Positions 57,979 to 61,026 of a DNA stretch of 64,000 nt are shown here, piece by piece. The DNA comes from Puniceicoccales bacterium. GTDB taxonomy: Bacteria > Verrucomicrobiota > Verrucomicrobiia > Opitutales > LL51. The DNA is taken from positions 2,983 to 66,982 of the forward strand of contig JAITAG010000039.1 in NCBI GenBank assembly GCA_031284265.1, read 5' to 3'. The position numbers and the translations under genes were made by a program. A model generated the notes under the pieces. The model did no database searches. It was not told the origin of the DNA and saw nothing but the letters and a program-made list of their open reading frames with translations. Numbering within the stretch: the stretch's first letter is position 1; every line of letters starts with the position of its first letter.

Positions 57979-60597
57979 TTAGCGACGTTGGGAGGTCTTC
58001 ATTCTGCTTCTACGTTGCACCGACTTTTTAACTTCGAGGACATTCTTATCTTCTCTGTTTCTATCTTCTTCGCTGCTTTTAAAGAGTTTGTTCCAAGTGA
58101 GCTGTTTCGCTTTGGGATCAAATGTTGCATTATCGAAGGAAGGCCGTTCATAATCATGTGTTAAAATAAATTCATCTGGTTTTAATGTTGGTTCTCCAGA
58201 GAGTTGACTATCCGTAAAGAAACGGTTTAGCTGCGTTCTTTTGGGTTCATTCATATCGATAATTGAAGGGGTAATGATATAGATGCGTTCCGCCACGCTA
58301 TCATCGCGGTTATTTACTTTAAATAAGTAACCAAGCAGTGGGATATCTTTTAGGAATGGAACGCCTGCGGAAGCCACACTATGATTTTCGTGAAAATACC
58401 CCCCGATAAATAAACTTTGGCCTGCGAAAAGCGATGCTTCCGTATTGACCGAATTTGTTGCCGTTGCCGGGCTATTGGCATTGATACGGGCATCTTTATC
58501 GAAGGAACCATCAGTTACCTCGATTAGCAACTTAATTTTTGGCGAGCCATTGCAGTCAAATTCTCCAGGGATAATATGGGGAACGACGACTAATTTTGTC
58601 GAAACAGTTACATCGTAAAGTCCTCCTGCTTTAGCGCCTGCGACGGGGGTATAAACGGTACTGGAACGGTCAATGACGGCACCAATATTATCGAGTGTAA
58701 TCACAGAAGACCGCGTTAAAGTTTGTGCATTGCCCACATCTTCCAAAATATTCAACGTTTCTGACAACGAATAATTTCTGAAAAGTTTATCAAAATTCAT
58801 GGTTATACTCGCGCTTGCTTTTTCAAGGAAGTCGAAAGCAATGCGATCCGTATTACCGGCCGCTGCGCCGCCCGCTGCTGCGCCAGTATTGCGTCTTTGG
58901 ACCGCGAATTTAGATCCTATCTTCATGGCCCCTCCTTTGGTAATATCTACCACAGCGACATCAATTTTAATTGCATCCCTAGGCACATCGAGTTGTTGAA
59001 TAATATTTTCAATAAAGGCCATATCCTGATGTTTGGCTTTCACGATAACCGCATTTAGACGCGCATCGTGAGTAACAAAAATTTCACTCAAATTAAGCGG
59101 ATTTTTTTCATCATTTTTATGATTATTTTTGCTATCTTCTTTGGGGTCACTGTTATTTTTTTTCGATTCATTGGTGTGGTATACCGTTCCCGGAATGGCC
59201 CTTGTCTCCGTCGCTTCGTTCGATTTCGAATTATTAATGGTAACGCCGATATTGCTATCACCGACGGGAACCGGTAACGCACTGACGATTTGTTGTAACA
59301 TTGTTGCAACGCCGGGAATTGTCATGTTACCGCCGCGGTAATTTACGGACATATCAAAGGACCAAGCATGTTTCAGCGGGAAAGAGCGAATATCATACAC
59401 GTTGCTTACGCGTTCGACGACTACTTTTTTCGACAATTCCTGGAGGAGGGACATCAATTTTGGCGGTCCGCTGACCACCAAAATACCCGCTGTCTCCAGT
59501 GGTCTAAACGTCACATTGGAACTCAACCATCCCAATTGTGTAATTACTTTTACAAGTGTTCGCATTTCGTCGCGACTCATCTGATAAACCGTTGATGTCA
59601 CTTCATTACTCTTATAGGCATACATCATACTACCGTCGAAAAACCACACCAATCCATAGGCATTGACAATATCCTTCCAAAATTGACGGGGCGTAACATC
59701 ACTAAATTTTCCATTAACCATATCACCGATGTTATCACTTACAATAACGTCCATCGATTGCATGGAGAAAAAGTTGCGAATCAATTCTTTCAAATCTTGG
59801 TCTTTGGCGAAGTGGTAATAGCCCGATGTTTTCAAGGGAAGGTGATCTACAGGATCGCCTTTCGTAAAGACCATTGAATTAACCATTTCTATGGAACTGC
59901 GATCAATTAGAGGAGTCTTCGAATCGCCGATAACCGTCCATTCCGATGATCCATTATGATGTTCGTTTTCCAAAGAATTATCCGGTAAAGTCGGTTCCGT
60001 CGCATGCAGTGGAGGGGGCCGACGAGCGGTGATAGATGGTTGTTCGGCGGGTACCGATGCGCTGGCATCGGATGACGGTACGCCCGTAACAGGTGTTGAC
60101 ACATTGGCAACAGGCACTGATGTAGCCATAACGGGTACTGGTGGTGTAGTCGCAACGGGTGCCGATGCGATAGTGTTGGTCGTCGTCGGTACACTGGCGA
60201 CGGACACTGATGTAGCACCGGACGCTGCTACGGTGGCAAGCGGTATGGTCGTAGCGGACGATGGTGATGGTTTGGCATTGGCAACAGGAGGTGACTGTGT
60301 ATTCTTCGGTAGATTTGTTTTTTTCCTAGATGATTTAGAGCCATCAATAGTAATAATATTTTTATTATTTTTAGAAATCCCCGCTAGAACCTGAGAATGG
60401 ACACCCGCAGATGAGTTCACATTACCCGTTTTTTTACCCGTTTTTTTCGATACTGTGGATGTAGCCACTTTTTGACTTGTCACTTTTTGATTTTTCACGG
60501 TAACGGTATTTGCTCCCTTTGAATTGTTATCCAGGGCTGCATAGAATAACGAAAACGTCGATATCCCCAAAACTGTATAAAAAAAACCCCTCATCAC
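57979..60597 (-). CDS. sctC: type III secretion system secretin (SctC/YscC/CdsC-like) with ~230-aa low-complexity N-terminal extension
   Basis: The N0-like block 'VIVSDNIGDMVNGKFSDVTPRQFWKDIVNAYGLVWFFDGSMMYAYKSNEV' follows the SctC pattern. The C-terminal secretin core is 'GVPFLKDIPLLGYLFKVNNRDDSVAERIYIITPSII'. The start is GTG 60597 or ATG 60594. Confidence 0.75.
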   Translation of the reverse strand: MMRGFFYTVLGISTFSLFYAALDNNSKGANTVTVKNQKVTSQKVATSTVSKKTGKKTGNVNSSAGVHSQVLAGISKNNKNIITIDGSKSSRKKTNLPKNTQSPPVANAKPSPSSATTIPLATVAASGATSVSVASVPTTTNTIASAPVATTPPVPVMATSVPVANVSTPVTGVPSSDASASVPAEQPSITARRPPPLHATEPTLPDNSLENEHHNGSSEWTVIGDSKTPLIDRSSIEMVNSMVFTKGDPVDHLPLKTSGYYHFAKDQDLKELIRNFFSMQSMDVIVSDNIGDMVNGKFSDVTPRQFWKDIVNAYGLVWFFDGSMMYAYKSNEVTSTVYQMSRDEMRTLVKVITQLGWLSSNVTFRPLETAGILVVSGPPKLMSLLQELSKKVVVERVSNVYDIRSFPLKHAWSFDMSVNYRGGNMTIPGVATMLQQIVSALPVPVGDSNIGVTINNSKSNEATETRAIPGTVYHTNESKKNNSDPKEDSKNNHKNDEKNPLNLSEIFVTHDARLNAVIVKAKHQDMAFIENIIQQLDVPRDAIKIDVAVVDITKGGAMKIGSKFAVQRRNTGAAAGGAAAGNTDRIAFDFLEKASASITMNFDKLFRNYSLSETLNILEDVGNAQTLTRSSVITLDNIGAVIDRSSTVYTPVAGAKAGGLYDVTVSTKLVVVPHIIPGEFDCNGSPKIKLLIEVTDGSFDKDARINANSPATATNSVNTEASLFAGQSLFIGGYFHENHSVASAGVPFLKDIPLLGYLFKVNNRDDSVAERIYIITPSIIDMNEPKRTQLNRFFTDSQLSGEPTLKPDEFILTHDYERPSFDNATFDPKAKQLTWNKLFKSSEEDRNREDKNVLEVKKSVQRRSRMKTSQRR

Positions 60598-61026
60598 CTA
60601 TACTCCAAAAATTGTCAAATTTGATCCCCGAGGTACTTCTCGAACGTAATTAAAAGCGTCTGCCCAAAATGCCAAATTCGCAACAAACGATTCCATCTCT
60701 CCAAATAGGTTGTCGGTAAAGAGTTCCGCTAAGGACCGTTTGCGAAATAAGCAAAGCCGATTACTTTCACTTTCAATGGAAAGTATGTCATCGGTATCCA
60801 TAATTCGTGCAAAATTCCATTGCAAAATATTTTTTAGTTTTGGTAAATCATTTTCCGTAATTTCCCCTGCAAAATAACCCCAAAAAACAAGAAATCGCCC
60901 GTCTAAATAAGCGATTTTTAGCTCCAAATGCTCGTCAATGATAATTTCGCAAACGGAATCTTCTACATTGTGATCTTCCACGCGAAAATACCGCACTAAA
61001 AATTCAATTGCTTCCCCCCATTCCAT
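60598..61026 (-). CDS. putative class I type III secretion chaperone (CesT/SycE-like)
   Basis: 143 aa from 'MEWGEAIEFL'. It is acidic and follows the pattern '..IIIDEHLELKIAYLDGRFLVFWGYFGEI....LPKLKNILQWNF......LSIESESNRLCLF' typical of T3S chaperones. Its stop abuts the secretin start. Confidence 0.45.
   Translation of the reverse strand: MEWGEAIEFLVRYFRVEDHNVEDSVCEIIIDEHLELKIAYLDGRFLVFWGYFAGEITENDLPKLKNILQWNFARIMDTDDILSIESESNRLCLFRKRSLAELFTDNLFGEMESFVANLAFWADAFNYVREVPRGSNLTIFGV

Follow-up and report, generated by a model that had tools for sequence, protein, structure and literature searches.

The window analysed here is a stretch of 64,000 nucleotides (64 kb) from contig JAITAG010000039.1 of a Puniceicoccales bacterium, and its minus strand carries two abutting genes that are ascribed to a non-flagellar type III secretion system (NF-T3SS), or injectisome. 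The first is a small gene (60598..61026) whose product resembles class I type III secretion (T3S) chaperones of the CesT family, and the second is sctC (57979..60597), which is predicted to encode the outer-membrane secretin of the system. With a probability of about 0.72 the pair is an operon fragment, consisting of chaperone and sctC, of an ancestral Ysc/Desulfovibrio-type injectisome cluster whose remaining sct genes are located elsewhere in the genome. This represents a known pattern, the fragmented injectisome as it occurs in Chlamydia, with a different origin and in the Puniceicoccales.

The SctC secretin

The product of 57979..60597 (minus strand) is, judging from its profile and structure matches, an SctC-type NF-T3SS secretin. 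In an NCBIfam scan it scores 318.1 bits with the SctC equivalog model TIGR02516, which has a curated cutoff of 238.45, whereas the GspD model of the type II secretion system (T2SS) and the PilQ model of the type IV pilus (T4P) yield 101.5 and 102.5 bits, far below their respective cutoffs of 351 and 284. The original prediction of an SctC-type secretin rather than a GspD or PilQ protein is thereby borne out. Pfam recognises T3S_SPI-1_N0, Secretin_N and Secretin domains in the order that is characteristic of T3SS secretins, and the top matches among solved structures are the T3SS secretins MxiD (residues 39-555) and InvG (residues 18-528), with full-length alignments that cover SctC residues ~243-263 to ~789-814.

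The individual domains are all encoded on the minus strand. The T3SS-type N0 domain (residues 263-328; 59614..59811) is matched by PF21304 with 28.6 bits against a cutoff of 27, and this region also matches the N-terminal domain structures of EscC and InvG. The ring-building Secretin_N domains (residues 404-541; 58975..59388) are detected by PF03958 with 59.4 bits in two stretches, which are separated by an insertion rich in K, N, D, E and S. The C-terminal secretin pore domain (residues 618-781; 58255..58746) is matched by PF00263 with 99.6 bits.

The possibility that a T2SS or type IV pilus secretin has been mislabelled as SctC could draw on the presence in the same window of two paralogous pseudopilin-like proteins whose N-termini carry a methylation motif of the prepilin type (FTLVELMAVIAIL), encoded on the plus strand at 28942-29739 and 29797-30570. 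The difference between the SctC score and the GspD and PilQ scores refutes this reading, and the T3SS-type N0 domain also speaks against it. Furthermore, one related locus (L003) contains a separate gene with only a Secretin domain (19620-21599), which suggests that a T2SS or T4P system is present beside the T3SS. A mislabelled secretin is therefore considered next to impossible.

SctC is distinctive due to an N-terminal extension of about 220 residues (approximately residues 30-250; 59845..60507, minus strand), delimited by its composition, which is basic, of low complexity and rich in S, T, V, P and A. It is preceded by a hydrophobic, signal-like N-terminus (MRGFFYTVLGISTFSLFYAAL), has no Pfam matches and lies outside the core that aligns with MxiD and InvG. 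The homologues of SctC range from 604 to 892 aa with extensions of variable length; the extension is confined to clades A and B of this family and is missing from the most distant clade (35% identity, ~620 aa). At the other end of the protein, a C-terminal tail of 57 residues (816-872; 57982..58152, minus strand) was delimited by the family consensus and by composition. The tail is basic (pI 10.4), the first part of it (RFF.DGQL.GE.TL.PDEF) is conserved in the family, and it is a possible S-domain or pilotin-binding region.

The small chaperone-like protein

The gene that adjoins sctC on its upstream side (60598..61026, minus strand) encodes an acidic protein of 142 aa (pI 4.44), which is a typical size for a class I chaperone. 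Profile comparisons place it in the CesT-type class I chaperone family, an assignment that is drawn largely from its relatives. The Pfam CesT model (PF05932) scores the window protein at 21.8 bits with a cutoff of 22 (E 2e-4). The corresponding upstream gene was taken from 36 related sctC loci and 21 non-redundant members were aligned as a family, in which 19 of the 21 members independently match CesT (best E 9.3e-11) and two also match Chaperone_III. When the family profile was run against all PDB sequences it retrieved SrcA (STM2138; 6e-7), three CesT entries (~3e-5) and another CesT-family chaperone, the sole non-chaperone match being a weak one to a phage protein (E 0.004). The earlier view of the upstream gene as encoding an acidic, chaperone-sized protein of the class I T3S type is in agreement with these results.

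In Yersinia the corresponding position is occupied by yscB. The small protein was not recovered by phmmer searches for which YscB, SycN and further reference chaperones served as queries, and an outright identification as YscB was therefore rejected; the position fits and the sequence similarity fails, which makes the protein a positional equivalent only. Within the operon-fragment reading two roles can be distinguished, that of a YscB-like co-chaperone of the gatekeeper SctW and that of a CesT/SrcA-like effector chaperone. The latter is a serious possibility that falls somewhat short of an even chance. The top PDB matches, SrcA and CesT, are effector chaperones, the Pfam family is CesT and similarity to YscB is nil; the position directly before sctC is, however, that of yscB, and in the related locus L050 a gene resembling sycN, which encodes the partner of YscB, is found beside sctW and yscX. 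In addition, class I chaperones diverge too fast for their sequence to settle the client.

Start sites and junction of the two genes

The two genes are joined by a compact junction (60592..60606, minus strand) that reads GGAG-TA-TAG-GTG-ATG. It is composed of a GGAG at 60606-60603, the chaperone stop codon TAG at 60600-60598, a GTG at 60597 and an ATG at 60594, so that the stop codon touches the sctC start codons and the Shine-Dalgarno sequence of sctC lies inside the 3' end of the chaperone gene. The two genes thus abut, as was originally noted, in an arrangement of the kind that couples translation. The sctC open reading frame (ORF) comprises 872 aa from the GTG at 60597 and 871 aa from the ATG at 60594, and the 871 aa form is the one deposited as MDR2812685.1. 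Because of the GGAG at 60606-60603, the ATG at 60594 is more likely to be the start codon than the GTG at 60597.

The chaperone gene lies within a longer ORF (60598..61128, minus strand), in which the internal ATG at 61026 gives rise to the 142 aa protein. This ATG is taken as the real start, since all homologues of the small protein begin at an equivalent M-E-W/Y position and since a promoter-like site is situated inside the longer ORF. The site, TTGATA-17-TAAAAT (61073..61101, minus strand), matches at 10 of 12 positions and lies ahead of the start codon of the chaperone gene, within the spacer that is shared with a divergent spoU-family gene. It is a weak indication, because the region overall is not enriched in such sites.

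Conservation of the pair

The chaperone-sctC pair is conserved, and its sequence evolution indicates that it is functional and under strong purifying selection. Of 37 related loci, 36 have a homologous small gene immediately before sctC, the exceptional locus being one that begins inside sctC. Wherever the pair is present it is located amid housekeeping genes, and other sct genes are lacking except in the locus L026. The spoU gene is found divergently upstream of the pair in every clade A or B locus that reaches that far. Within the clade of the window, dN/dS (omega) was estimated at 0.06-0.07 for the core of SctC and at 0.07-0.30 for the chaperone, values that are rough as dS is near saturation.

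Isolation of the pair in the window

The pair is flanked by genes for an LptF/G protein (56785-57936) and a SpoU-family methyltransferase (61164-61961), the two neighbours that the original prediction had named, and the gatCA genes are also nearby; all of these are housekeeping genes. No other sct genes were found in the 64 kb window, either by Pfam searches of the other 30 large ORFs and four family-less ORFs or by phmmer, for which 45 Sct proteins encoded on Yersinia pCD1 and on Nitratidesulfovibrio pDEVAL01 served as references, and an HMM (hidden Markov model) of the SctD family. Inspection of the translated ORFs between 27.5 and 39 kb likewise identified no sct gene. Exact look-ups with the secretin itself, as 872 or 871 aa, led to no indexed contig. 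With gatA an identical Logan contig was obtained that continues for 4.7 kb beyond the end of the window, and in this extension only gatC, ABC-transporter and helix-turn-helix (HTH) genes are present and no sct gene. The claim that the pair stands apart from other T3SS genes consequently holds for the window and for the 4.7 kb beyond it.

Several candidates in the window were considered and rejected. Three ORFs at 31-36 kb (211, 345 and 700 aa) had been suspected to be sctR, sctU and sctV by their size and turned out to encode BatA/BatB-like VWA proteins, and a 430 aa family-less ORF (12726-14018) was ruled out as SctD by the SctD family HMM. The proximity of LptF/G to sctC was also entertained as a relic of an ancestral T3SS link. 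LptF/G does adjoin or neighbour T3SS genes in the related loci L050 and L048, where the proteins are only 31% identical or unmatched; the idea was dropped for this reason and because the adjacency is not kept in other sctC loci.

sct genes elsewhere in the order

Related genomes contain sct genes in blocks of graded size, all of them apart from sctC. In L026, whose SctC is 35% identical to that of the window, sctD shares a contig with sctC at a distance of 6 kb and is followed by a 75 aa yscE-like gene, which scores 22.1 bits with Pfam YscE against a threshold of 22. A pair of sctD and a yscE-like gene is found in L040, L041, L044 and L045, with prsA, map, rnpA, adk, dxr and recA as flanking genes. 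The blocks are longer in L048/L049 (sctD-E-F-G-I) and in L051 (sctD-E-F-G-I-J-K-L). The longest occurs in L050, where genes for a TyeA-domain gatekeeper (sctW), a SycN-like protein and yscX are arranged divergently to sctD-E-F-G-I-J-K-L-N-O-P. Five of the L050 products exceed their NCBIfam cutoffs, namely SctN (757 bits, cutoff 657), SctJ (208, cutoff 162), SctL (175, cutoff 159), SctD (131, cutoff 86) and SctX (70.2, cutoff 30); the SycN-like gene reaches 26.9 bits with a cutoff of 84.6, and the TyeA/LcrE-like gatekeeper is below its cutoffs.

These loci were reached through SctD. A search with the SctD of L026 returned 42 homologues, and the named ones all belong to Puniceicoccales/Opitutales and carry the NCBI name SctD. 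Among the next ten representatives that were looked up from a HMMER search with an SctD profile, four were more divergent SctDs from Puniceicoccales, and three of the four gave the contexts L048/L049, L050 and L051. A metagenome scan with the SctD profile, in a collection from which the termite samples are apparently absent, gave two loci only, one of which (L043) belongs to an unrelated organism with sctD and sctF. The distance of L050 and L051 to the clade of the window is approximately that to the L026 clade (LeuS ~60% identical).

As read from their gene content, the blocks of the relatives point to an injectisome of the Ysc type that has been fragmented to different degrees. The surmise that T3SS genes are scattered is upheld in the related genomes, where sctD pairs and blocks from sctD to sctI, sctL or sctP are separate from sctC. 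Since sctC is missing from the sctD block in every relative examined, the two genes were parted long ago. Their separation may even predate the Puniceicoccales clade, because sctD does not follow sctC in the nearest outgroup locus either. In this locus (L047; secretin 30% identical to the SctC of the window), on a Joint Genome Institute (JGI) contig of 245 kb, a partial cluster at 6398-12708 comprises a tetratricopeptide repeat (TPR) chaperone, two translocator-sized genes, a 144 aa CesT-like gene, sctC and CesT. The 144 aa gene is recognised by the chaperone family HMM (E 3e-7), and the cluster is flanked by MutS/ClpP and glycosyltransferases.

Locus L050 additionally encodes, at 1-2080 (minus strand) and 8-10 kb from the T3SS cluster, two large proteins (584 aa and more than 1500 aa) with faint ankyrin-repeat matches. 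Among the effectors with which intracellular bacteria target eukaryotes, ankyrin-repeat proteins are typical.

Comparison with known systems

NF-T3SS occur in Proteobacteria, Chlamydiae and Verrucomicrobia (Abby and Rocha, PMC3459982). A literature search retrieved no published description of a T3SS in Puniceicoccales or in termite-gut Verrucomicrobia. An NF-T3SS has already been recorded in the Verrucomicrobia for Verrucomicrobium spinosum, according to two papers (PMC3459982; PMC3681970); this organism, which is compared here by description only, is free-living and belongs to a different class.

The closest parallel in gene order is the Ysc system of Yersinia (pCD1/pYV, yscA-L operon), where yscB, a class I chaperone gene, directly precedes yscC and yscD follows. 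The pair in the window is ordered likewise, and the relatives add the order D-E-F-G-I-J-K-L and N-O-P, yscX, a sycN-like gene and a TyeA-domain gatekeeper. Unlike in Yersinia, sctC and the chaperone gene of the window are cut off from sctD and embedded amid housekeeping genes, SctC carries the 220-residue low-complexity extension and the chaperone is without detectable YscB similarity. The hosts also differ, a verrucomicrobial symbiont in one case and a proteobacterial pathogen in the other.

A second parallel is provided by plasmid pDEVAL01 of Nitratidesulfovibrio vulgaris, on which a CesT-family chaperone gene is followed by sctC, sctD, (E), F, (G), J, K, L, N, O, P, Q and R. Its SctC is the best-scoring reference that was tried, with up to 263 bits as compared with 224 for YscC. 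The Nitratidesulfovibrio T3SS differs in that it forms one compact plasmid cluster, and its SctC is only ~28% identical to that of the window. On these comparisons of gene order, the chaperone-sctC arrangement is interpreted as ancestral synteny and the pair in the window as a cluster head severed from sctD.

Scattered NF-T3SS are described for all Chlamydiales and for Hamiltonella (PMC3459982). In Chlamydiae the secretin (CdsC) groups with T2SS and phage secretins and its N-terminal region is unique, whereas an 'NF-T3SS-like' secretin is common to all other systems (PMC3459982). The chlamydial T3SS and that of the window and its relatives have in common the dispersal among housekeeping genes and a host from the PVC (Planctomycetes-Verrucomicrobia-Chlamydiae) superphylum that is intracellular, probably so in the case of the window. 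A long extra N-terminus of the secretin and nucleotide transporters that point to energy parasitism add to the likeness (PMC3459982, PMC9816063). The window differs from Chlamydiae in its phylum, in a secretin of the NF-T3SS type (a contrast that rests on PMC3459982), in the Ysc-like gene order of the relatives and in a fragmentation so extensive that modules of only two genes occur. Convergence is the best reading of the resemblance to Chlamydia, with an intracellular life that led to similar results in two lineages of the PVC superphylum. The likeness to the scattered loci of Chlamydiae that had been proposed at the outset therefore survives in part; the scatter is found in related genomes, and the chlamydial flavour is not supported in view of the Puniceicoccales host, the SctC equivalog and the Ysc/Desulfovibrio-like gene order. 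Hamiltonella defensa, likened by description only, is another intracellular symbiont with a scattered NF-T3SS (PMC3459982), and differs in being a gammaproteobacterium of aphids.

Host lineage and lifestyle

The secretin of the window is 100% identical to MDR2812685.1 (LBB05_02800), which is encoded on a 72.8 kb contig of a Puniceicoccales metagenome-assembled genome (MAG). All SctC homologues above ~320 bits derive from Puniceicoccales/Opitutales MAGs, the next matches being at most 30% identical and of mixed sources, and a scan of species-representative genomes with SctC yielded 34 loci that likewise all belong to Puniceicoccales/Opitutales MAGs. The isolate codes of these 34 loci (Nc350, Cd354, Kf353, Im510, Gsp477 etc., accession series JAI...) resemble abbreviations of termite species; if the codes are so interpreted, and in the light of a paper on metagenomes of termite guts (PMC9137090), the material looks to be of termite-gut origin.

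Another gene of the window codes for an ATP/ADP translocase of the TLC family (10945-12468, minus strand; 595 bits). ATP/ADP translocases are a hallmark of obligate intracellular bacteria, for example Chlamydiae and Rickettsiales. Because the window encodes this marker of energy parasitism, the host probably lives inside a eukaryotic cell. The 878 kb contig that carries the related secretin P0038 suggests a reduced genome.

An origin of the window from Chlamydiae, with the pair as a scattered chlamydial locus (cdsC), would accommodate the scattered arrangement, the long N-terminal extension of the secretin and the translocase gene. It is refuted by the 100% identity to a Puniceicoccales MAG protein and by relatives that are all Puniceicoccales/Opitutales; in addition, SctC is an NF-T3SS-type equivalog as opposed to the T2SS/phage grouping reported for chlamydial secretins (PMC3459982), and the relatives contain yscX and a Ysc-like gene order. 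This origin is accordingly regarded as very improbable.

Proposed model and completeness of the system

It is proposed that the chaperone gene and sctC form a small operon for the outer-membrane ring of an injectisome and a CesT-type class I chaperone. The ancestral cluster would have consisted of the small chaperone gene, sctC and then sctD, and would have been broken up to varying degrees in this order, with the remaining sct genes expected as further mini-modules elsewhere in the genome. SctC would be exported by the Sec pathway and form the secretin ring in the outer membrane, where its N0/N1 domains would dock onto the SctD/SctJ inner rings; the 220-residue S/T/P-rich extension could be a lineage-specific addition. 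The chaperone would act in the cytoplasm as a dimer, binding a substrate of the secretion system by its N-terminus and bringing it to the sorting platform and the ATPase. This substrate may be the SctW gatekeeper, with a SycN-like protein as partner as in the case of YscB, or an effector.

It may be inferred that a complete dispersed injectisome is present in this genome, on account of the phylogenetic bracket, the strong selection on the pair and the fact that a T3S chaperone is useless without an export gate. A number of observations weigh against the operon-fragment reading and its extension to a complete system. No sct gene besides sctC is tied to the MAG of the window (LBB05) or to its closest clade, and none of the Puniceicoccales loci that were examined showed sctR, sctS, sctT, sctU, sctV or sctQ. 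No SctD homologue was found on the 757 kb and 878 kb contigs that carry a clade B SctC, in searches covering the 42 homologues and the ten representatives, in which misses are possible. The small protein of the window, taken alone, is 0.2 bits short of the Pfam CesT cutoff; a single-sequence AlphaFold2 model of it has a pLDDT (predicted local distance difference test) of 46 and shows a compatible but unreliable order of H-E-E-E-H...H, and neither phmmer with YscB nor a comparison of the family HMM with YscB detected similarity to YscB. Lastly, the intracellular lifestyle rests on a single marker gene and the source of the MAG.

Some of these observations would be accommodated by an orphan secretin, in which case the injectisome was otherwise lost in the clade of the window and the pair was kept as a stand-alone outer-membrane conduit or as an adhesin-like surface structure that makes use of the extension. 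The lack of other sct genes in 64 kb and the 4.7 kb beyond, the missing SctD match on the two large clade B contigs and the restriction of the extension to clades A and B are in favour of this scenario. The purifying selection, however, is strong on a core that includes the T3SS-specific N0-N1 docking region, the T3S chaperone is co-conserved and would be pointless without a T3SS export gate, and in L026 the same pair is found with sctD on one contig. An orphan secretin is therefore judged to be unlikely. Broader wording, in which the rest of the injectisome is either gone or changed beyond recognition in the clade and the pair with its new extension persists under strong purifying selection as an independent module that serves some purpose besides classical type III injection, is given marginally less credence still. 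The pair is thus preferably understood as an operon fragment of a dispersed injectisome.

Should the dispersed system be complete, the Puniceicoccales of termite guts would constitute a second PVC lineage that combines an injectisome, nucleotide parasitism and scattered sct genes, and its starting point would have been a Ysc-type system with an ordinary T3SS secretin, unlike the chlamydial type. The related MAGs would provide a break-up series from an sctD-to-sctP cluster down to two-gene modules, and hence a natural model of how a large machine with co-regulated genes survives operon fragmentation during genome reduction. On these findings the bacteria, which are uncultured, are probably symbionts or parasites that inject effectors into eukaryotes of the termite gut. 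The secretins P0001-P0037 and P0086-P0093 are labelled 'hypothetical protein' by NCBI though they are above the SctC equivalog cutoff, while SctD proteins from the same MAG series are named correctly. With such naming of the secretins, clustering-based annotation pipelines will miss the system.

Other features of the window

The window contains at least 12 copies, in both orientations, of GC-rich, internally palindromic intergenic repeats with the core AGGGGATGGATCCCCTGG and a second module CTGCGGCC...GGTCAAGGAGT. They are located at 2472-2727, 4082-4617, 7578-7852, 9134-9237, 30611-30831, 38752-38830, 41317-41364, 42236-42283, 44204-44356, 48298-48602, 55081-55167 and 62017-62209. The copy in the spacer of spoU and gatA is ~1 kb away from the chaperone gene, and a further copy is located 2.8 kb beyond sctC. 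These elements, which resemble repetitive extragenic palindromes (REP) or miniature inverted-repeat transposable elements (MITE), could have driven the rearrangements that scattered the sct genes. A family-less 'ORF' at 4086-4616 consists of the same repeats.

The 430 aa ORF at 12726-14018 (plus strand) adjoins the translocase gene, has a signal-like N-terminus and no family matches, and contains an internal duplication of ~310 nt (12945-13089 and 13257-13401); from these features it is a candidate secreted or effector protein. Two further plus-strand ORFs, at 27737-28723 (328 aa) and 8178-8894 (238 aa), have no significant family match. The region 31984-38063 (plus strand) is a BatA/BatB-like operon of VWA-domain proteins, as judged by sequence inspection alone, in which the end of the 700 aa VWA protein (33587-35689) is formed by a long tandem repeat with a high content of Q, N, S and D (family D3, 35160-35474). 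Seven tRNA genes are present in the window, and that for tRNA-Thr(CGT) is duplicated together with its flanks (50903-51024 and 53626-53747), the copies being 91-99% identical.

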